64,000 nucleotides of DNA from Cyanidioschyzon merolae (GCA_000091205.1 AP006490.2); one strand, 5' to 3'; numbered from the stretch's first letter, positions 7,037 through 51,378 are shown. Program-made: numbers and translations. The notes: a model not told the origin generated them from the sequence alone.

Positions 7037-7382
7037 ACGTCTGCAAGTTCGCCTCTATTGCCGTATCCTTTATGGCAAAAAGAGTTACAGATTACCCAAA
7101 TAAACGCGCTCTGCCCTCTTGAACGACCACAGTTAGCAGTCTCTGGCGCATTCGATACGAAGTAGGTCATAGCTATAGCTATATCAATCACTACTTCAGT
7201 ACGCTTCATGACTTGCGAAGCAATTTTGGTTCTCCACATCAGGAGGAGTGCCCACCCATCCGTTCAATATCCGATCGTGACTGTGGGATGCCGTCTCATC
7301 GGTACGCTGTTGCTCCCACATTTGTCTTTGAAGCAGCGGTCTGCGCTTTGAAGGCGCATCTCATTTTCATCACTAACAAACC

Positions 7383-8488
7383 TTAGACAGGGGCCAAGAT
7401 AGTCGACTTGAGGCCTCGCCTCCGTAACGCCTGGTCGATCAGATCAAGACTCAGTTCGTAAAGCTGATCTGCCTTGTCGATTTCGTACGTTGGTTCAATA
7501 ACCTGCGGTTTCGTCTTCTCTCGACCTTCGGTATATTTGCCACGCCACTGATAATACGAGCCCGAGTCCGAGAACTGTCCCTGGGTCGCCACTTCGGCTA
7601 CGCGGCGGCCGGCCTCGTCATTCGGAAGGTATTGCCGAGTGATATACTTTTGAAGAATCGGAAAGAATACGTACCGGAACCAGCCACGCTTTTCGCGGAA
7701 GAGGTTGCTGTCGGCGACACATCCCGGAAAATCGCCACAGAGGTCACCCCGTCGCGGCCGTATCAATGACCGAGCGTCTTCATTGATAAAACGTTCGCGG
7801 CTTTGGCGTCTTTGAAAGCTGTTGTGGGCTCAAACGGGCCACTGTCCACCATGCCCGTCGTCTGCGGACCGAGCCCCGCGGCTAGACCAGATAAATCCCC
7901 GAGACGGGCCTGCGGGAGGATCTTTCCCGGCAGCGAATTCGGCGAGTGGGTCTGAGTCGTCAGAAACACAATGTGCCTGCGCGATATTTTCATCTTCGGC
8001 AACAGCTCCCGACATAGAAGCAAATGGCTCAGATGGCATACCTGCATGGTTTTCTCGATGCCGTCCACCGTGAAACGCGGTTTCTTGTCCCGCGGATGCC
8101 ATATTGTGGCATTGCAGATCAGGGTATCCAGGTGATCGACGCGCGCCACACTTGACAGCTCTCTTACAAACTTCAACACAGAGGCGAAATCAGCCATATC
8201 ACAATGCAGCACGGTATAGGCGTCCTTTAGAAGGTTTACGCTGTTTGCTGCGCGCTCCGCCCGGTCGACGTCACGACATGCCATGACGATGTGCCAGTTG
8301 CCCTTGTTGATCAGAGCGTGAGCTGCATACAGACCGACTCCAGCGGACGCGCCAGTGATCACAGCGATCTGTGATTGCTTCGGGCCCATACGAAGATGCA
8401 GCGCGTGGTGCCGGCGCGCCCCAGGCAAACGCAGCACTACCAAGGCAGCAGATGCTGGCAATGGCGACGATGTCCCGCTGCGAAGCAC
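7383..8488 (-). CDS. POR: Light-dependent NADPH:protochlorophyllide oxidoreductase (LPOR) homolog. Its reading frame is broken by a 1-nt frameshift at about 7763-7766 and it lacks an ATG-initiated transit peptide, so it may be a pseudogene or an assembly error
   Basis: The 5' ORF 7763..8488 carries IAVITGASAGVGLYAAHAL, GNWHIVMACRD, AYTVLHCDMADF, LICNATIWHP, CHLSHLLLCRELL, LGDLSGLAAGLG and FKDAKAANVLSMK. These match the POR motifs KWHVIMACRD, DSYTVMHLDLAS, LVCNAAVY, LGDLRGLAGGL and YKDSKVCNMLTM. The 3' ORF 7383..7766, in another frame, continues with GDFPGCVADSNLFREKRGWFRYVFFPILQKYITRQYLPNDEAGRRVAEVATQ, which matches [47 protein letters not shown]. The first in-frame ATG, at 8387-8389, sits directly at the Rossmann fold. 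Confidence 0.75.
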
Positions 8489-10347
8489 CCGTCAGGTGCG
8501 GTACGCAGCAGGAACGGTGCTCGAGTTGAAGCGGGCGTACAAAGAACGTGCCAGTCCATTTGCAGGGGACAAGAAACGAGCAGGGCTTGCGTTTTCTAGA
8601 TTTGATTTTTTTCCGGTGCGAAGGCTGCCAATGACCTCAACAACAATACAAATTCGCTTAAGCATGCGTATCCATTCAAAAACCTCTTTTGCGTAGCTGC
8701 ACGAGTGATCGTCCGTCCATTGATGCAGATGCCAACCTCAATCTCCCGTAGACTGTCTAACTTTGAGCACAACCCACACAATCGCCGAATGTCCTTTTCA
8801 GAAACTAGGCAAGACTCCCATTTTTCTCGAGCAACAACCTCGTCAGTGCTAGTCGCTAAGCGCTCCGCAGTGCTACGCTCAAAGAATACGAAGTTCGCAG
8901 ATGAACTTCGACAGAGCTCGCCAACGGATACCGTAGAGGAGGTATAAGGGAATTTCCTCCGGTGGTATGTTATTTATGGAAGCGCCTGCACGTCAGTTGG
9001 ACACGTGATGTGTAGGGCGGGTCGCTCGCCACTACTGTGGAAGGCCGGCGACAACGTTTTTCTTTTCAAAGGCATTTGTTGTTGACTGTGTCGCTTCCGG
9101 GCTCGATGGACGGGTTAGGCTCCTCAAACTAACCTTATAGAGTAGATCAAAATGCAGTATGTCCTTTTGTCGGGTTCCTCGATCGTTCCAGGCTAGATGC
9201 AAGTCTCAAGCTTCGTGGAAGATATGGACGCAACATGTGTGCTATGCCTCTGCCAAGATCACCAGAGCTAATCGACGTAGCGGGAGCCAGAAGTTAGACA
9301 AAGACGGTAGCATGGCAATGACTTGAGCTCTCATCAGTGCCAGCCCATGACGTACGACAGAGGCACAATTCAGGTCAGTTCCGTATTCCAGTGTCCGTGC
9401 ATGATGCATAGCAAGCCTGGGGAATAAACGTATATCCATGTTCGAGAACACTACCGTGCCTATTTTGGTTACGATCAATACAACTGAAGAAACTCTTATT
9501 GAGTAGAATATTGCATACCTTATCCACACAAGTCTAAGCCGCAGAGAAAGATACGCTTTTGATATGAGCATCGCGGGGTTTCGTGCCAGGCCCTGCATCT
9601 CCACGTATGTCAGGGCGGTACTGCGATGGGCAGTAGCGTCGGCTCCAGCGAGAGAGCCTACAGCAAGAGATCGTTCTACGTGAGTTTGCGATCTACGATA
9701 CTTTATGTTTTGCGGCAGTGCGATGCGAACACGCATGTGCCAAGGCGGGGTGTCGGACACGTGTCCTTCATCTACCTGAGTAGCGTCGCGCGCAGTGGAT
9801 GCATTGCGCTAAATGAGCGCAACTGGGTGATCAGGCAGTCAACTGACACGATGCGCATGCCGTTGTTGAAGGGAAACGCGATCTCGATCAGAAGCGTGTT
9901 GTTCAGCTGCAAAAAGTTGGATTTCCGTTGAGGACATAGCAAAGTGTAGTTTTCTGTTCGTTTTTGTTTCAGCCCTCGAACAAGTCTAGTCAAGTATTTT
10001 TTCGGAGTATATAACAGAAGCGTTCAAAGAGCGTTGTTTTTCAAAAAAAAACTAAAAAAAGGAACCTATGAAAAAACAAGTAGACGATCCTGGAGGCCCA
10101 GGGTCGTCGGCTGCTAGAAAAAAACAAAAAACATTGCCGAGCCCAGAAGAAAAGGAGGATGACAAGGACCGAAGGGGGTAGGTCCTACGTCGAAGGCGGC
10201 AAGAGAGACAACAATACAACGAGATGGTAGTAAAAAACCTGTCGTCTTGGACATATTAAGGATCCGTATAGGGAAAACTTACATGTCGCTATCAAAAAAC
10301 GTGTTGCGTCATACTCCAAGAGTATTGTCAAGGCGCCGTCTGGACTC

Positions 10348-12440
10348 ATGCATTTGGTGACGGAGATGTATCGCGACGTTACGAACATCGTAACGGTCGA
10401 GATTCCGGACGAGTTTTTCGACAAGACCTTTTTTTTTCGTCACATGATGCACGGTACAGGGGAGGCGCGGAAGGAAAATGTGCTAGTAGATGCCTTTCAC
10501 GAAAAGCATCCCTTTTACAGATTCGAGGGTACTCGGCACAAAGGTGACCGGGATATTTACACATACAGGCCGATAAAGTACCTCACGAATCTGAAGAACC
10601 ATTTCAGAGTGAATCTCGAACGTTTCATGATCTGCGCCGTGTTTGCACTCTATCCGGGCCTATCTCGCAATGCAAAATGGACGATGATCAATGGCATCAC
10701 GAACGATCGAAACTATGGAAATGGGATCGAATTCGTCGGAGAGAAGGCATCAAACGAAAGCGCGAGCGAAGCTTCCGTAATCCGTGCGGTTATAGAAGAG
10801 CACCGTGCGGTACTGTGGTTGGCGAATCCAAGAGACAAGATATCAGAGTTGAAAAAAGATAAGGAAAGATACTTTCGCCTCGTCCTGCGCTACTTTGTGT
10901 TTCTGGACCGAGAACTTGAACGCAAAGCGGAGATGAAGCTGATTGAGGAAAAAAATGAAGAGTGGGAGAGACGGAAGGCTATCCTTATGGGGAAGCGCTT
11001 CAACGTGGTTCTAATGAGCAACATCAAGTCACATTTTGTTACTATTGACTCCGGCGTCCTTCACGGCATCATGCAGGAGATCAGTCCCGAATTCAATGAT
11101 AGTATGGACGACTTCACCGGTGAAAACCGGGAGACGTACTGGAAGAGTAACTTCCAGTACAAACGTCTCAAAGTCAGCAAGCAAAAGGTATTCACTGGGA
11201 TGATCGAATCAGATGGAGTAGCCTTGTGTGTACACTATCGGCGGTTGAAGAAAGATCGGCCAGTCCCTTTCTCGGCTGCGCCCGTCACGAAGGATGAAGA
11301 AATGGAGGAGACTGGTCTTGCGACGCAGAAAGTGCAGGATAATGTCTTTCTCGTTGACGCGGCGAAGGTGGAGAGGAGAAGGAGGCGGAACTTACGACGC
11401 AGGAGGTGGAGGATAACGACCTCGTCGTTGGCGTGACAAAGGATGAAGATGAGAAGGAGGCGGATCCTGTGACGCAGGAGATTGAGGGGCACGAACTTGT
11501 CGTGGACGTGACGATGGATGGAGATGAGAAAGAGGCGGGTTCTTCGACACAGAAAGTGCAGGATAACGACTTTGTCGTTCGCGCGGACCCTGGGAACCCA
11601 ATTATCATAACCATCGCTCTACCCAAGCGTGCGGAAGATTGTAACGACTGTAACTTGCGTCAGAAAGACATGCGTCTGTTGAGATTCTCGAGAGCAAGAT
11701 ACTATCGAAAATCCGGTATAATGAATGCTAGGAAGAAAATTGAGACGTGGAATTCATGAATGAAAGAGCACCTGGGAGCTATGTGCGAGGTGACGAGTCG
11801 CGTAGCGGACTTGGAAGCTTTTCGGAAATTCGTGGAAGTTCGTGTTGCCCATTGGGATGCACTGTGGGAGGAGTATACAAAGCCCCGGTGCGCTCGTCCG
11901 CAAATGAATCTATACGGCGGAAGGCAGCTGGCGTTTGCCAACTTTTTCAATCAGTTGGGCGCCTTCAAAAAGGACAAGAGTCAAAGACTAGTAGTAGCGT
12001 ACGGAGCAGTGCGCTGGGCGCCCAAGAAAGGCACTACGCCAGCTCTAACGACAAGAACGTACAAGGAGTGCGCAAGGCGTTTTGTTCCAATACCTGTAGA
12101 TAAGTTTCGAACATCGTATACACACCATGAACTGGGGTGTACACTTGAGAGAGTGGAGATGGAAAAGTGCCAACGGAGTCCTGAGAATAAAACAAAGTAC
12201 GGACCGCTGACGGAGGAGGAAATGGAAAGGAGGGCAAAAGTGCGAGGATTGCTTGCACTGGTGAGTACATCCAGTGATTGCAAGAAACGTATGGAGTTTA
12301 GTAACCGAGACTTTAATGCCACTATCAATATATTAGGAGATGTGCGATGCTGGAGAAGAGACCTCCAGAATAGTCAAGATGGAACTTTATTGGACAATCC
12401 TGCAAAGCCGCGCTATATGAGAAATAGTTGGAAGCACTAG
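10348..12440 (+). CDS. TnpB/Fanzor-like RuvC-fold nuclease gene (OrfB_Zn_ribbon type). It is disrupted by one frameshift at about 11360 and one in-frame TGA at 11757-11759
   Basis: Three ORFs make up the gene: 10348..11436 (a genuine ATG start), 11406..11759 and 11760..12440. The C-terminal part has [21 protein letters not shown]...C...C, which matches the TnpB V..VdP.yTSq.C..CG box. It ends with [12 protein letters not shown], matching the RuvC-III D[RA]DxNAAxNI motif. The N-terminal part has a RuvC-I-like [12 protein letters not shown]. The protein is about 690 aa if joined. Confidence 0.65.
11285..11600 (+). repeat. Four tandem copies of an 81-bp unit encoding a 27-aa acidic repeat ([VT]xDE[ED]xxEAGxxTQKVQDNxF[LV]V[DR]A) inside the Fanzor-like gene
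   Basis: The four copies are [50 protein letters not shown] (in a shifted frame), [25 protein letters not shown] and [25 protein letters not shown]. The frameshift lies between copies 1 and 2. Confidence 0.8.
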
Positions 12441-12628
12441 TAGGTGGCCGGTCCAAGAATACTGGGAGGCGTCTGCACATCAGTTCAGGACGCTATGTTT
12501 AGGGCGCGATTGCTGCCACTACTGTATTCCGGTGACGTCGTTCGACTTTTAAACGGCGTTCGCAGCCGCTTCGGTCTAAGCGTGTGAATATAATTCCCCT
12601 GGGAAGCGCCAGTTGTGGACACTTGCAG

Positions 12629-14008
12629 ATGGCAGGGTCACGAGCGAGCAACCTGAAACAAACCCGCGAAAAGCGCCAGCGCGCTGTTGCGTCTGCTTCT
12701 GCTGCCGCTGCTGTCCGCTGGGAAAGCATCGATGCGGCACTCTGCGAGCAACGGGCAACAGCGGTCACTCGTAGCCTGATCTGGGCCTACCTTATTCTCG
12801 CTGTGGTACTCGTTGTGTTCCCTGCCCTCTATACGCACGCGGAGGATAGTGGCCTGCTCTCCAGTGCGCCGCGGCTATTCGCCATGGCCGCAACAGCGAT
12901 CACGCTCGTCAACATGCTACTTGTTTCAACCAGCGTCGTCTTCATCGGGGCACGCGTGTCTGCAGCACGTGATCGGCTTCGCCGGTGGGCTCTCGAGCAA
13001 TCCCGTACCCGAGCGGGCGCGGACGACTCAGAATCGGTGGCGGCTGCGTTGGCAGCGCTCGAGCGCGAAGTCATCGGAAGAGGCGACGCGCTGCGGTTCC
13101 CCCTGGTCGCTTCACTTGGCCTGATAGCACTCTTCATGGCCATTCGGTACCTGCCGCAAAACGTTGTGCAGCTGCTCATCGGGATGTACGTTGCTCTAGC
13201 CTCGCTGGTCTCGATGACGAGTATCCTCTCGCCGCTGCTGGACCTGCTGGAGCACCGATTGCGGCAATCGCCGCGCACCAAACCGTTGGGGATGCTCATG
13301 GCGCGGCGGTTTGGACTTTTCAGGGATACGCTCTCGGTACACGGTCGAGATGTGCTGGGCATGGTGCTCGCGCTGCCGCTTCTCTACTGGTATCGGCAGT
13401 CGAGCGGTCTCGGCGCTGCGATCCTGAACAATATTTTTGCGGCAAGCCTGGGAGTTGCGGGCATCGACCTATTGGCCATTGGTGACTTTCAGACGGCTGT
13501 CGTGCTGCTTGTCGGCCTTTTCCTCTACGATATTTTCTGGGTCTTTGGCAGCGAGGCCGTCTTCGGCGACAACGTGATGGTATCGGTCGCGCGCGGCATC
13601 GACGGTCCCTTCAAATTCGTCTTCTACCGTCTGCGAGCGCGCCCTGATGCAGCGCGCGATATGTCGATGCTAGGACTTGGTGACCTGGTGATTCCCGGAC
13701 TCTTTGTGGCCCTGATGTTGCGCTTTGACCACCGTCATTTGGCGAAACCTTCACTGGCGCCCAAGCATCCCTATTTTTCTGCTACATACATGGCCTATGC
13801 ACTGGGTATGGTGACAACGTTCGTAGCGATGGCGGTGTCGAAGGCGGCGCAACCTGCGCTGCTTTACCTGGTACCGTTCTGCCTGGTGGCACCGCTGATG
13901 CGAGCCTGGCGCCTGGGCGAGCTGCGCTCGCTCTGGTATTACCGCGAACACGATGCGGAGCTTGATTCGCATCGCGAGCCGCACCAGTCGTCATGCAACG
14001 ATACCTAG
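12629..14008 (+). CDS. Signal peptide peptidase (presenilin-type intramembrane aspartyl protease, SPP/HM13 family)
   Basis: YDIFWVFGS carries the YD motif, MLGLGDLVIPGLFVALMLRFD carries GxGD, and QPALLYLVP carries PAL. There are multiple TM helices. The ORF track start at 12584 is GTG; the first ATG is at 12629. Confidence 0.85.
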   Translation: MAGSRASNLKQTREKRQRAVASASAAAAVRWESIDAALCEQRATAVTRSLIWAYLILAVVLVVFPALYTHAEDSGLLSSAPRLFAMAATAITLVNMLLVSTSVVFIGARVSAARDRLRRWALEQSRTRAGADDSESVAAALAALEREVIGRGDALRFPLVASLGLIALFMAIRYLPQNVVQLLIGMYVALASLVSMTSILSPLLDLLEHRLRQSPRTKPLGMLMARRFGLFRDTLSVHGRDVLGMVLALPLLYWYRQSSGLGAAILNNIFAASLGVAGIDLLAIGDFQTAVVLLVGLFLYDIFWVFGSEAVFGDNVMVSVARGIDGPFKFVFYRLRARPDAARDMSMLGLGDLVIPGLFVALMLRFDHRHLAKPSLAPKHPYFSATYMAYALGMVTTFVAMAVSKAAQPALLYLVPFCLVAPLMRAWRLGELRSLWYYREHDAELDSHREPHQSSCNDT

Positions 14009-34910: not shown

Positions 34911-35739
34911 AGCAGGCCCGTACAACAGCACCAACGACTTTGTCGAATCATTGAGGACGTTTTCCTGACGTCTGGCGACGCCCTTACATTAGGAAAAGGT
35001 GGTATTTCACCATTACCCTTCGTGTTCGAGCTTTTGCTTACTCTATCGGGGTAGAGCAGCACTTCATTCTTCCGGACGCTCCGTGTTTCAACTGCATCGG
35101 ATCAGTGTTCTCCATCATGAAACATAACCATCGCTCCACTGGGCGAATCGCTAAATCGTCCAGCACACGGTGACATGCTGGGGCATATTTCCTCATTCTC
35201 GTGCAATCTCTTCTTCTTCTGGGAAGATCGTCACCTACTGGCATTAGAAAGTGCAATCATTTTCAGAACAAAGGAGAGAACGATCTGGGATGTACACTTC
35301 AGAGCGTCGAGAAGGAGACAAGGCAGCGGAGCGCTTTGGTGATAGAGAAGTATAGAGAGCTCGCAATGCAGCAAGTGGCACGGAGGGCACGAGCTCTACC
35401 AACCCCTGCACTGACGAGTTCCACCAAAGGCAATAAACGCATGGAGTTCGTGCACTAAGAATTCAACGCCGCCATCTATATCAGACGATATGCAATGCTG
35501 AAGACAAGACCTAGGGGCGTGACGCGAGCCAACGTTATGAAGCAGTCTCTCAGGCTCGAAGTGTGTCTGGATGAAACCCGAAACCGATAGCATCGATCTG
35601 GTCGAAAAGTGCTGGAAGGTGGCGTCTGCGCGTGGGTATGCATTTACCCCACATTGTCGTACAAAATACTTGCGCCAATCATATGTAGTTCCCTTGCGCT
35701 TTCACCTGCTCTCTGTGGGCTATTCTTCGAGCAGTATGC

Positions 35740-37677: not shown

Positions 37678-40600
37678 GGCGCACTGCCTTGTGCTCGACG
37701 CAGACGAACGCTGCCCAGACATGACCGGGTGTATCCGAATGAATAGGAGTCGTTCAAAACGTTCTGCGTAGAGCTGTGAATTCGGGGACACCTGGACTAG
37801 GACGCCTGTTCTGGTCCTGTTTGTTTTCTTGCAGGTACTCGGTAAAAGGAATGTTTCATGTTGATGGGAAAGAGGCTGCCGAGAGACTCTGTGGTGGAGT
37901 CACCGCCGGCCTGTGAAAACTGACCTTACCAGTCTTTCTCAGTATTGGAAGGGTAAGCGGGTGTATAAGCCACGCTTCCCGGAGTCCATAGTCTGAACAT
38001 GGTGTACCCCAATGAGAATGTATTAAACTCTATCTACACAGTTTGCTCCTCGTCAGCTCATTACAGTTTACAAATTTTTCTAAGGTATGCTGCGAGAAAA
38101 TGCAGAGTTTGTGAAGTTTCCGTATCTTTGGATTGAACATCGAGGAAGCGACGCAGGTACGCAAAGCCAAAAGCACCTATCTACCGCAGACTGTCGCGCG
38201 TTGCACAACTCAGTATCAGCTTCATAGGGAAACACGAGTGCTTACACTAGGTGCGACGGGCGTTCATCTGACTCGAGGCGACTTGATTCTAGAAAATGCT
38301 AGCCCTTCACACGGGTAATCCAAGTAGGGCAAACGTGGGTTGGTAATGAAGAAATAAGCGAACATAGCGACGACAGCAGTCCGAGCGGTGATTCCGTCGC
38401 ATGGTCTCTTACAAATCCGCACAGAGACAGTGTTTCTGAACACCGCGTACTTCGTCGAGGCACTGACCGTCGATTCTCCTTCGCATAGAGTTTTGTGCTG
38501 TTCTCGGACAGTGTGGCTCTCCACCTCTCAAAGTCGGCAAGGCGTATTCAGCTAGGATTCGCGTTGAGATGCTTTTCGTGTCGACCGATTTTCTCTGGTT
38601 CAATCCAGTCGAAGAGGTATTCGACTGTTGGTGTGGAAAGCCGTTTCTACGCTCATGTATTGAGAAAAGTTCCGTCTGCATACGGGGCACCTTTCTTCAA
38701 CAAGACGTTCTTCGGAACCTTCACCAGCATTGAACTGATTTTTTGCGTTATTGCTCATGCGTGGGCGGAACCAGAAAGGTGCGCTTCGGTCCGAGCGCTT
38801 GCTCGCTGGGAGAAAATCACGAAACGCAACGTGGAGTATAGTAGGTAAGCAGATGCAAAATGATACTTTCAGTCGGGTCGTCCACCCAGAAATTCGGATT
38901 CCTGAGAGAAACGGATACGGGTTACAGTGACCATATCAATGCTACACTGCCAAATAGAGGAGAAGGAGAAGAAAACGCCGGGCATAGAAAAGATACGATC
39001 CTTCCAAAAAGAAGACATGGAGGAACAGGAAGCATGAGCTCGCTTAGAAGCTGGGCGCAACTATGGGTCGCAAAGCCTCTTACTCGAGGAACGCTTGCCT
39101 TGCGCCACCCGCCGTGAAGCAGCTCGGCGAGCAACTGGTCACAGCAGTTCCAGTCACGTGGCTACAAGCTATCCATATTTCTCACTAATTTTTCGATGAG
39201 GCCTATGTGCGACAACAACAGCTGCTTTTCGGGGTGGACGAAGCGAAATGGCCGGATCGTTGGATCAGGGATTTCCTGACACAATTTCCTGGATACTTTA
39301 AAGCGTCACCGTGCCCCGCTGACGATCGGAATATATCCAGCGCAGGTCGGAAAAGTATCAAATCGATCGATGAGATTCGTTCTGAACCGGTCAAGATGTG
39401 CGAACCGAGAACCTTTTTGATGAACTTGGATTCCAGGCTGAAGAGTATACTGCCCGTTCCGTGAGCTCCACAGCACAAGGACAATGCCGAAGATCTGAAC
39501 GGAAACCATGTGAAGATGCTCTGCTACTCCAGGGCTCCATATTCTCGGAGTTTATATCTGACAGACACCAGTCAACATTCCAAAATGTGGAATGAAGGCG
39601 TCAGAACGCATGCCGACACCCCGTGCATCGTTTCGAGCGGAGGGCGGTGCTTTGTTTGCATCATTCAGCGAGGACGTGAGCTTCCGCATCGCTCATGCGG
39701 ATGACCCTTGGCAGTGGTATCTGAGGGTGCGCGGGGGTCGCCCGCGGTGTCCGTTGTACGGGAGCGAGTAGCTTGCATTCACCAATTTCTCCAACGGGTT
39801 GGAACGGGAAACGACGCACAAGTTGCGACGTTCGGTGGTATCTAAGGGCGCTGGTCGTGTTGGTGCGCGCCTGGGATGCACCCCTGGTCCATCGCCACGC
39901 TCGTGTTGAGAGCTCTGGGATTCATGCTCTCCGCTGCCAATCGACGAATTCGGGGCGGTATTCACGCATAACGTGCACGGTTGCACGCTGGAACTACGAG
40001 AGAAGGAGAGCGTGAAACGTAGCCAGCTGATGGAGATGGTGCTCGGTAAGCTAGCCAAGCATTACGTGGCGAGGAGTTTGAATACGATTGGCTTGCAATG
40101 ACGTGATTCCACCATCAAGAATGCACCCTAGAGGATTTTTCTCTGGGGTCTGAACGGTTCGAGCAGTATCCAGAAAAGTCTCGTGTTTTCTGAGCGTGTG
40201 GCGGCTTTGAATTTTGCAAAGTCTCGAAGAAGTCGTTTGGAGCTCGATTTGGGCCTTTTCTGATGCGTTGAAAACTTTCGAAGAAAAAAGGCAGTGCTCA
40301 GAAGCAAGAAAATTGGTTTCTCACCTAGTGCCCGGCACTGGTAGAGCACGGTCAGCGATCGAGCAAGGCTGGAGCACCCCATATATATTCCGGAACCGGA
40401 TTTTCCTGACGATTGGAGAACGCTAATAGTGGTTCATATTCGATATTACAGAGTATACGCAGGGCCTGGAAAAGGGTCGTCTTGGTTTATAACGCGTTGG
40501 GTGAAAATGCTCAGCTTTGTATGATTGCCATCACCCGCCTAGGCTCTGCGGGTCGCGCAACATACTCGTTAATGCCACGTTCCTCCGGGGGATTCCGGAT

Positions 40601-48964: not shown

Positions 48965-51378
48965 TTGCAGTTGTGCAGTGACGTGCCGCAGCAGAAACCT
49001 GTACGCTCGATGAGACGCAAACGTTTGTCTGTGGAAGCTGGTCGGCACGCTGCGACGTCCGCGCTGGCGATGCGCCCCGTGCTGTGGATGGCGCCCGCTG
49101 CTGCGCACTCAGCGACTTCGCATCTTCCACCACCGAGCGTCGCCAGTGTTGCCTAACGAACGTTTAATGACGAAAATTTCCCGCAAAATGTGGATAGCTA
49201 GCAGCCTTGTGTCCGGAACTCCGATGAAGAGCTTCCTGACGCGGAGCTTCCAAGCGAATGAGGCCCGGTGAGCCTTCCCCGAATAAGAAGCTTTAAGATC
49301 CCAAATGACGCCCTGTATATTTCCGTTTCACAGATGTGAACAACTCGTGTCATGATCCTTGAGCGTAAAAACCGATTTTGACAGCAGGAAAGAAGCCTAG
49401 GACATGCCTGAGCCAAAGAGAATAGGCTGTACCGAAGAGCGACTATACGCGATCCCCAACTGCACACTCCGTGACGGATTTCGAGGGACAGACAGCATCG
49501 GTATCTAAATGCACGACAGAGGATTACGGGAAGGAAAAGCCACAGCGAGTGCCTCGACTGAGGATGCGGGATTGAACAGTTCTGTTCGTGTACCGGCGTG
49601 TAGGCATCTACGCGATTGAATCGCTGCCCGGGCTGATATTGTCGTCATTCTCACTTGTCGCTTTTTTACATGCAGCGATTCGCGGTGCCTTCAGTACCCA
49701 TATTCAGTTCTACCATATTTCCCGAATGATGTCTCATCGACTGAGACGAGCATCTGTCCTTTCTATTATCAGCGGTCGCGTCTCATTGCGAAATCGAAAG
49801 TGCGCAATTCGATGCGAAACGGTAGTCGATAGAAGTGTGCTCTTTCTTCGTCCATCTGCGTCCCTTCATTTCGGCTCGTATCAACATTGCGGAAGCTTCA
49901 CATTCAGTAGCTCCTTTGATAGTATTTCTTATGAAAGATATGAAGTGGAACGGATCGAAGAAGATACAATCAAGTAAGTAGAGCTTGATACGTTGGTTTT
50001 TGAGTGCACGACGATCAGAATAGGTACAGCGAGAAGGATCATGTACAGTGTTGCTGCAGTAGAAATACTGATTTGTTCAAGAATCATCGTTTTCCCGAGC
50101 TCGCAATGTAAGCATACAACCTTTCAGCAACAATTCTCCAATCTACAGGACAGATTCCTTGTATTCAATATCAGCGAGAGATAGAAACACAAACAAAAAG
50201 GGAACGCAGGTCCACGTACTCCTGAATTCTCTGCTCTATTTAGCAACCGTCGGCCTCTTTAAAATAAGTTGCACTGCTTCCTCGAACCGCAAAAGCAAAT
50301 CAACGACTCAGCCGGTTCTCCCGGTAGTTTCGACCACGGCTTCAAACACGAGGAAATTTTGCCTCAAAGCGGCTGCTCCAGCCGCACCGCAAGAGGCGCA
50401 CCCCACGGAGCTTGCAACCCTTTTGGACGTAGCTTACAATCAGTTGGCTCGGACTTCCTTTCGGTGCAGCTATTCCCATTCTAACCATGGCTCGAGGCCG
50501 CATCCGCTCTTGTATTCTCTAACTGCACTTGAGTTCCACCCTCAGATGCGTATCATCAAATGCTTTTTCGCAGTTTATGGCGGATGCATTCGAAGTGCGT
50601 TCATTTTCAAACATAAAAAATCCAAGGGAAATCTATGGACATCGAAGGCGGGGATCCTCAAGGGCCGTCATTGCCGAGTCCCAGAAGAAAAAACGAAAAA
50701 ACGTCTTATCGCCTACCATCGAGTAAAAAAAGCAAGCGACGACGGCGAAGAAGAAGATGGGAAATAGATGAGAAAGGGTGCTCGCCCGACAGAACGATGA
50801 AGAGACTGTGGTAGCACTGAACCCACCACTTCGAGCAGTCCGTGTAACGGTGAGTCCAACCAGCAGTGCCGCACGGAGGAAGCTCGTGAACCGGGACATT
50901 AACGCTGCCACCAGTACCAGGACATGTGCGGTGCTGAAGACGAGACAACAGGAGCAGATGCGATCCAACTTTTTGGGGCCAGACTCATAGGGTCGACGTG
51001 TGCGCGAGGAAAAACTGAAACCAAAAGCAGGCGGCTCGTACAACTGCCTGGGAGGCGTCTGCGCTTGAGTAGATCTATATTGACCCTCCGTGGTGGTGAA
51101 ACGTTTTCGTTATGCTGACAAATATAGGTAAGTTTCGTTGAGTGGAGGATCAAACGCGCAATCTACGCAGATCAACGGGGCATGCGTCGCACTTCCACAC
51201 GGGCGTCACCGGAATGCGCGCCATTGCGGTCGGAGAACTCCACGTTCCGCGTGCAAAGGCGGACGCGTTCGCTGCGCTCCTGAGTGCTCAAGTTCCGCAA
51301 CTGGTTTAGGAGCCCTTTCGACGTCACGCAGGCTCTGTATTGGAAAGAGCTACTTCTAGGGCTGTCCAAGAACTTCCC

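Follow-up and report, generated by a model that had tools for sequence, protein, structure and literature searches.

A candidate omegaRNA module at the right end of a decayed Fanzor1 element in Cyanidioschyzon merolae

Organization of the locus and the Fanzor1 pseudogene

The window analyzed here is a stretch of 64,000 nucleotides from Cyanidioschyzon merolae (GCA_000091205.1 AP006490.2), with about 54% G+C and dense open reading frames (ORFs) without introns. It carries the broken gene of a Fanzor1 nuclease (10069–12440, + strand), followed on the same strand by a gene for signal peptide peptidase (SPP; 12629–14008). A first-pass annotation of the window had placed a possible guide RNA of the omegaRNA type at 12380–12630, where the two genes meet. 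The interval between them is not an anonymous spacer, as nucleotides 12430–12560 are common to about 40 independent repeat copies. We read this segment as the right-end (RE) non-coding module of a CMe-1A-like Fanzor1 element; in intact copies its most likely role would be that of an omegaRNA scaffold template, a reading to which we give slightly better than even chances.

Three-frame translation against an intact relative of 752 amino acids (P0001) resolves a single gene of about 2.4 kb, starting with the ATG at 10069. The first-pass annotation had called this gene Fanzor-like, and a family profile of 59 relatives, gathered by an exhaustive search of 1.8 billion representatives, confirms it as a Fanzor1 homologue by matching the solved structures of Parasitella PpFz1 (9cf0, E = 9.3e-22), Spizellomyces SpuFz1 (8gkh, E = 3.8e-14) and Guillardia GtFz1 (9cer, E = 2e-9). 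Only this deeper profile succeeded: a single-sequence phmmer search and a shallow profile gave no matches against the PDB, and Pfam searches with the ORF pieces of the window and their relatives returned nothing usable, merely a weak Cas12f1-like_TNB match. An AlphaFold2 model of P0001, built on a 19-sequence alignment, had a mean predicted local distance difference test (pLDDT) score of 34 and was unusable for fold comparison.

The window copy contains two in-frame stops, a TAG at about 10177 (GAT in the intact copy) and a TGA at 11757–11759 (GGA in the intact copy), and at least three frameshifts: a +1 shift near 10235, one near 11380 and one near 12335. The shift near 11380 falls inside four tandem copies of a 75-nt unit (11283–11586, +), whose product is an acidic insert separating the N-terminal half from RuvC-I and which vary in number among family members (P0001 versus P0002 and P0004). 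Additionally, the RuvC-II glutamate is replaced by lysine (VDEFRTS to VDKFRTS, at about 12096–12116), leaving the D...E...D triad incomplete, while the motifs ADPGN and NRDFNA are retained; across the family alignment D484, E656 and D725 are invariant or nearly so. The broken ORF pieces of 330, 117 and 226 amino acids recur on contigs from four other samples, and lesions that recur in independent assemblies are not sequencing errors. Because the profile matches solved Fanzor1 proteins, the triad is kept in the family and the window copy is broken, we classify the window gene as a Fanzor1 pseudogene. Intact relatives such as P0001 occur elsewhere, and identity across copies amounts to 0.82, 0.86 and 0.715 at the first, second and third codon positions; the better conservation of the first two indicates purifying selection on the Fanzor1 protein.

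The last Fanzor-like frame is the ORF 11760–12440 (+), closed by a TAG at 12438–12440 that is followed by a second TAG, and 188 nt separate it from the SPP ATG at 12629. Both coordinates had been given in the first-pass annotation and proved right when the ORF and the ATG were read again. Its view of 12440 as the natural gene end holds only insofar as the ORF does end there: the frame at this point stems from the frameshift near 12335, and the ancestral frame of this copy already stops at 12370–12372.

Limits of the repeated element

All close DNA relatives come from hot-spring metagenomes of the Joint Genome Institute (JGI), and their loci are labelled L001 and onwards. A DNA pattern derived from the 3′ segment retrieved 73 metagenomic loci, which form about 33 groups distinguished by different downstream flanks; 3′-truncated copies are invisible to this kind of ascertainment. 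A Fanzor ORF lies directly upstream in 30 of the roughly 33 flank groups, and pairwise DNA identity between copies is 77–83%.

The minimal repeated unit, comprising a 5′ leader, the ORF and the 3′ module, spans 9800–12560 (+), as delimited with blastn and MAFFT over four or more independent insertion contexts. The anchor GTTGAAGGGAAAC (window 9864) stands about 64 nt inside its left limit, and its right limit falls at 12544–12566. The true left end is uncertain: alternative 5′ modules of 600–700 nt occur among the copies, and in one sub-family the similarity reaches further upstream, to about 9100 or about 7102. Just inside the left limit, a small hairpin, GCGCT-aaatg-AGCGC, can be read from the sequence at 9806–9820 (+); its L001 equivalent is CGCG-gtcgata-CGCG, and other copies are ambiguous. 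No terminal inverted repeats (TIRs) of the element were found, nor was a second gene seen in it, the element having neither a second ORF nor a transposase. A minus-strand ORF in the 5′ module (9242–9760, 172 amino acids) was considered as a second gene and rejected, since it contains stops in all paralogues.

At the opposite end the limit is sharp. Column identity, averaged over pairs of copies, amounts to 0.80 in the ORF tail and 0.79 in the core of the 3′ module (0.75–0.76 at positions not fixed by the search pattern), 0.64 in the tail leading to GGCGTT, 0.36 over the next 15 nt and 0.28 beyond. The similarity breaks right after GGCGTT, at window 12559/12560, 120 nt past the stop at 12440, and the near-identical elements L013 and L041 part company right after GGCGTT(T). 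The first-pass annotation had anticipated a sharp drop in identity at the element end, and copy comparison located it here; the other copies do not end well before 12440, which that annotation had named as evidence against its proposal, but at 12559/12560. In L030 (about 598–720, −), compared with L078, the terminus (CCGCCACTACTGT...GGCGTT) shows a 49-nt tandem duplication ending exactly at the family boundary, which may be genuinely polymorphic or may have arisen in assembly.

The 15 nt that follow the boundary (CGCAGCCGCTTCGGT; 12561–12575, +) are variable and occupy the position that a guide would take. In 41 independent copies, G+T amounts to 0.77, 0.61 and 0.62 at positions +1–5, +6–10 and +11–15, versus about 0.48 beyond, and A to about 0.1 over +1 to +15, versus 0.2–0.25 further on. 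Right ends that are otherwise unrelated carry, in five cases, a common 14-nt motif after the boundary, T[GC]YTTYCAGGGRTG. Within the window, the putative guide 16-mer is not meaningfully matched a second time. Three causes could underlie the bias: the element may prefer certain targets, its terminus may evolve fast, or flanking sequence may be taken along in copying.

Coding status and predicted fold of the 3′ module

The core of the 3′ module, a candidate omegaRNA scaffold, extends over 12430–12528 (+), where a covariance model designated R1 scores 91.4 bits (E = 5e-27). It is followed at 12534–12560 (+) by a terminal hairpin, which folds with 9 bp here, including two G-U pairs, and ends in GGCGTT, where family-wide similarity stops. 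The whole module thus defined (12430–12560) measures about 131 nt.

Measured from the core, the stops of individual copies are scattered over −94 to +104 nt and over different frames. The similarity is unaffected by them and continues past them, so the module is not maintained as coding sequence. It could be argued that the core codes for a basic tail at the C-terminus of the nuclease (...KKLEAVVGGRSKKTGRRLHVSWRRFV*) instead of an RNA, given that in 3 of 14 copies (L026, L028 and L004) the frame stays open across the core until a TAG at +35 or further on. However, the remaining 11 stop at −94 to −27 in different frames, including intact P0001, whose stop lies about 70 nt before the core; copies of the module without any ORF exist (see below), and relatives from the wider family end about 17 residues past RPxxLxR. 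A coding tail is therefore the explanation to which we attach the least weight, and we consider it very improbable.

Minimum free energy (MFE) folds of 30 copies share a recurrent plan, in which a long-range helix (GCAGTAGT/ACTACTGT) is drawn around three hairpins (CCGGTC/GACTGG, AGACG/CGTCT and GGCGSG/CSCGCC) and followed by the terminal hairpin. In other copies the latter reads CGTCGTTCGActtTCGAACGGCG (10 bp) or CGTTTTTCttttGAAAGGCG (8 bp), with compensatory differences; the two versions of the terminal hairpin, CGTCGTTCGA...TCGAACGGCG and CGTTTTTC...GAAAGGCG, are set apart by such changes. When the 131–134-nt module was compared with dinucleotide shuffles, intact copies gave z = −3.9, −3.9 and −3.5, with 0–1 of 200 shuffles folding as well. 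In 32 of 33 copies, folding is more favourable for the sense than for the antisense strand (−47.2 versus −37.4 kcal/mol), but a G/U-rich strand should fold better in any case.

Model R1 found 74 further matches in related loci, including copies that the strict pattern had missed. In a model-fitted alignment of 58 distinct sequences, 82% of cells pair, versus 34–54% with slid partners. Double changes occur in 13 pairs, versus 8.1 ± 1.8 after shuffling (5 of 500 shuffles), and in 28 cells versus 12.1 ± 2.9; pair types number 40, versus 32.8 ± 2.3 (0 of 500). In the diverged locus L090 and in relics from the window, L010, L028 and L061, similarity is lost after GGCGTCTGC, and hairpins still stand at the corresponding places.

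If transcribed as we suppose, the module would template an omegaRNA scaffold of about 130 nt, with the closing long-range helix, three internal hairpins and the terminal hairpin. Transcription would proceed on the sense strand, from a 5′ end expected near GGAAGCAGTAG, and would run some 15 nt into the flank (12561–12575 here), supplying the guide. The resulting omegaRNA would bind the Fanzor1 nuclease of the element, which it would lead to matching DNA beside a transposon-adjacent motif (TAM). What copy comparison bears out of the guide-RNA-like region proposed at 12380–12630 is a shared non-coding segment running from the ORF end to a sharp boundary, with a recurrent sense fold and some compensatory changes; transcription, protein binding and guide function would follow by analogy with known Fanzor systems.

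A number of results weigh against an omegaRNA. The window copy folds like its shuffles (z = −1.1, and z = +0.15 for a longer segment). RNAalifold applied to 26 copies returned only 9 weak consensus pairs (−6.2 kcal/mol). In MAFFT alignments of the pattern-selected copies, covariation was not significant, with 83–85% compatible cells versus 33–57% for slid partners, and the better covariation statistics come from an alignment fitted to the covariance model. Rival pairings exist for the same strands: AGACG can pair with an upstream or a downstream CGTCT, and GGTGG or CAGTAGT compete for pairing with CCACTACTG. Between copies, the module is scarcely better conserved (identity 0.75) than third codon positions are (0.715), so that descent alone can explain the sequence conservation. 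The composition bias and partial sharing of the first 15 nt beyond the boundary misfit guides drawn purely at random from the flank. No common TAM or target-site duplication (TSD) motif was found at the left junctions, where clean independent examples are few (L001, L002 and L025). A search of Rfam 15 gave no match at E ≤ 1 in 9000–14000, which says little, as that library holds curated families only.

The comparison with third codon positions, the shuffle-like fold of the window copy, the weak RNAalifold consensus and the lack of significant covariation in unfitted alignments, together with a z-score of −3.0 for the antisense strand of L001, would also suit a module that is simply the neutral last 120 nt of an old repeat, similar by descent and folding as a by-product of its G/U-rich strand. 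This is harder to reconcile with the z-scores of intact copies and their one shared architecture, with counts of pair types and double changes above those of shuffles in the 58 sequences, with hairpins at the same positions in diverged subfamilies of unrelated sequence, and with gene-less copies that keep the whole module with a substituted hairpin. A neutral relic thus seems to us an unlikely explanation for the family as a whole. We rate the support from covariation as moderate and, on the folding models, regard a conserved RNA structure of the module as likely rather than demonstrated; the conserved structure sought by the first-pass annotation is predicted as a recurrent fold of intact copies, with moderate covariation and no advantage over shuffles in the window copy.

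The window copy itself is old and decayed. Its module is most probably a relic locally, because the nuclease gene is dead and the fold weakened. With the local Fanzor gene inactivated by stops, frameshifts and the Glu-to-Lys change, any RNA from this copy could act in trans only, making it at most an RNA source for Fanzor1 proteins from intact copies.

Ghost and truncated copies

A protein-less "ghost" copy of the 3′ module lies at 8926–9076 (+), where R1 scores 57.5 bits (E = 5e-16) over its full model length (8926–9041). The ghost is 72% identical to 12465–12560 (blastn), its second hairpin is substituted (GGAGG...CCTCC), its fold gives z = −1.3 and no Fanzor coding remnant was found upstream of 8926–9076. 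It is positioned 20–27 nt upstream of the start of the 5′ module of about 700 nt, and homologous ghosts occur in L021, L023, L026 and L062. In L024, the right end of a truncated Fanzor copy is found at a similar distance from the same 5′ module. We considered the copy at 8978–9076 as a left terminal direct repeat of the element and rejected this, since full-length L001–L005 and the "Y" group have no upstream copy.

The ghost is part of a block of about 5.4 kb (7102–12560, +), which also holds a fragment of a protochlorophyllide-reductase-like short-chain dehydrogenase/reductase (SDR; 7763–8488, −), the 5′ module and the Fanzor element, and which recurs at 80–90% identity in L021, L023, L026, L045 and L062; for the four loci with homologous ghosts the range is 80–85%. 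Because the downstream flanks of the block copies differ after the Fanzor right end, this larger repeated unit terminates there as well. The L045 copy has a mosaic make-up: its upstream part shares about 99% identity with the window, the 3′ half of Fanzor about 75%.

About 14 of some 31 distinct loci are 5′-truncated at different points and retain the 3′ module, a count biased by the finding of loci via their 3′ ends. The window can serve as an unbiased sample, and in it 3 of 5 Fanzor remnants consist of the 3′ end only. Right-end modules placed head to tail, 2.3–3.1 kb apart, were observed in L063 (5293–7768, −), L028 (1212–4448, +) and L057; these pairs are tandem or nested elements of which the downstream one is 5′-truncated.

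Such copies bring into play the main rival of the omegaRNA reading, in which the module would act in cis as an end of the mobile element, or as the 3′ untranslated region (UTR) of its mRNA, would serve mobilization instead of guiding and would be read in trans by a transposase or reverse transcriptase (RT). The 3′ stem-loops of long and short interspersed elements (LINEs and SINEs) are recognized in this manner by an RT supplied in trans, and stringent LINE/SINE 3′ tails, for instance that of UnaL2, combine a structured 3′ end with a short variable repeat-like tail and frequent 5′ truncation. The present family resembles them in its structured 3′ end, variable tail and 5′ truncation, which we take as a lead only, and differs in lacking an RT gene, a regular tail repeat and demonstrated TSDs. 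Frequent 5′ truncation with retention of the module, 3′-end-only remnants in the window, the lack of TIRs and of an encoded transposase, the variable G/T-rich tail past the boundary, the terminal hairpin at the very end and the head-to-tail arrangements all suit a mobilization signal, and Bao and Jurka likened CMe-1A to non-autonomous elements of the HAL1 type (PMC3627910). On the other hand, the preponderance of 5′ truncation comes from loci ascertained by a 3′-end pattern, among which 3′-truncated copies could not appear; the tail is neither poly(A) nor a regular microsatellite; and the element has no linked RT, the RVT_1 ORF close to L002 being outside it and on the other strand. A mobilization signal is moreover compatible with an omegaRNA, as the right end does both jobs in known TnpB/Fanzor elements. 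As a replacement for the omegaRNA, we consider it rather unlikely, although ahead of a neutral relic, an SPP promoter and a coding tail.

The ghosts and truncated copies that keep the module, the G/T-rich zone of 15 nt that unrelated loci partly share and the modules 20–27 nt upstream of another start also fit a reading in which right-end modules are free-standing guide-RNA genes, and/or the element spreads via an RNA intermediate. In the latter case, copies would be made from transcripts ending at the omegaRNA 3′ end and would carry "fossil guides" along. The same observations on ghosts, on the 15 nt and on spacing would also be expected if cleavage of the element's own flank opened insertion sites at a constant spacing from the right end, and we hold the free-standing or RNA-borne alternative to be doubtful.

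Comparison with known systems

The family matches CMe-1A-like elements in features that both share. CMe-1A, a Fanzor1 element of Cyanidioschyzon merolae, was described as comprising about 150 copies of about 3 kb, about 80% identical to their consensus, without TIRs and with TSDs undetermined, with some intact ORFs and with 635 bp at the 5′ end common to another repeat (PMC3627910). Here, too, the host is a red alga of the class Cyanidiophyceae, the element measures about 3 kb, copies are many and about 80% identical, TIRs are lacking, some ORFs are intact among many decayed ones, and a 5′ module of about 600–700 nt occurs beyond the Fanzor-bearing copies. The match is made to the published description. 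The 3′ module is not described in that 2013 paper, which predates omegaRNAs (PMC3627910).

Fanzor1 omegaRNAs measure 75–150 nt; that of GtFz1 has 150 nt and four stem-loops, and about 15 nt of guide are protected (Xu 2024, PMC11423790). In SpuFz1, the scaffold lies between the stop and the right end, with a variable extension of 14–15 nt, and gene-less ghost loci exist (Saito 2023, PMC10432273). The present module resembles the omegaRNAs of SpuFz1, GtFz1 and PpFz1 in its placement between, or overlapping, the stop and the right end and in its variable extension of about 15 nt; its candidate total of about 146 nt is close to the 150 nt of GtFz1, and the proteins are homologous. It differs in having no detectable sequence similarity to those RNAs, in a compositionally biased extension and in being a candidate known from sequence alone; the conserved 7-bp SL1 could not be assigned. 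SpuFz1 elements also possess inverted repeats and a conserved CA motif, neither of which is found in the present family. The window ghost (8926–9076) is like the Spizellomyces punctatus ghosts in being an omegaRNA-type module without a nuclease gene; however, the latter are short elements running from one inverted repeat to the other (PMC10432273), whereas the former sits inside a larger block, directly upstream of a Fanzor 5′ module.

A right-end position of the module also links the family to IS200/IS605 elements, as do small hairpins near both element ends, which are not defining by themselves. The TnpB omegaRNA (reRNA) of these elements, such as ISDra2, overlaps the 3′ end of the nuclease gene and the right end, and its guide is the adjacent flank. 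Unlike them, the present element has no TnpA (Y1) and no recognizable left-end TAM and resides in a eukaryotic host; its protein differs from TnpB by a large N-terminal and recognition (REC) region and an acidic repeat insert.

Fanzor1 in Cyanidioschyzon-type algae has been known since 2013 and Fanzor omegaRNAs are established, so that the module is an expected part of a known system; the guide RNA of these particular elements is undescribed. What is new is a delimited candidate RNA for the family, the ghost module and the unexplained traits of the 15-mer past the boundary. The analysis provides a candidate scaffold of about 130 nt with an exact 3′ boundary (GGCGTT), a testable fold and intact partners such as the 752-residue P0001. 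These red algae, which combine tiny, almost intron-free genomes with genetic tractability, could serve to ask in vivo what Fanzor does for its element.

The neighbouring signal peptide peptidase gene

The SPP gene (12629–14008, +) encodes a protein of 459 amino acids with a Peptidase_A22B domain (Pfam PF04258, E = 1.4e-66). An identical protein is recorded from 15 contigs, and the best named relative, from Cyanidiococcus yangmingshanensis, shares 65% identity. Since no more than 68 nt lie between the element end and the SPP ATG (about 53 nt when the G/T-rich stretch of 15 nt is included in the element), the promoter and/or 5′ UTR of SPP would overlap or directly adjoin element sequence, an inference from distance only.

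It is conceivable that the segment now acts mainly as an SPP promoter or 5′ UTR, that is, as exapted transposon sequence. The short distance, the shared strand and the identical arrangement on all long contigs with SPP, from six or more samples, are in keeping with this, yet all of these concern position, and the module shows the same conservation at loci where other, unrelated genes lie downstream. A search via SPP orthologues revealed no orthologous empty site, since all SPP contigs carry the element and the next relative (65% identity) is too distant. Exaptation of this kind appears improbable to us as the main role of the segment. For annotation, the Fanzor "gene" of the window should be treated as a pseudogene and the 188-nt "intergenic" region as mostly a transposon end; by its distance to the element, the upstream control region of SPP may be called transposon-derived.

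Diverged Fanzor1 remnants

Three further diverged Fanzor1 remnants lie in the window at 35279–35663, 39057–40197 and 50829–51113 (all +). One is a degenerate near-full-length copy with 27–32% amino-acid identity, and the other two each combine a C-terminal fragment with a right-end-like module. The weaker R1 matches at 35580–35663 and 51017–51113 come after these short C-terminal Fanzor fragments. Both relics were considered as 3′-truncated after GGCGTCTGCGC, which was rejected because hairpins persist and only the sequence differs from there on; it is more likely that they belong to a diverged subfamily.

The most distant relative found, P0039 (35–47% identity; L089 404–1024, +), has a fragment of a DDE_3 transposase of the Tc1/mariner type directly upstream, and its subfamily may be carried in a different type of transposon.

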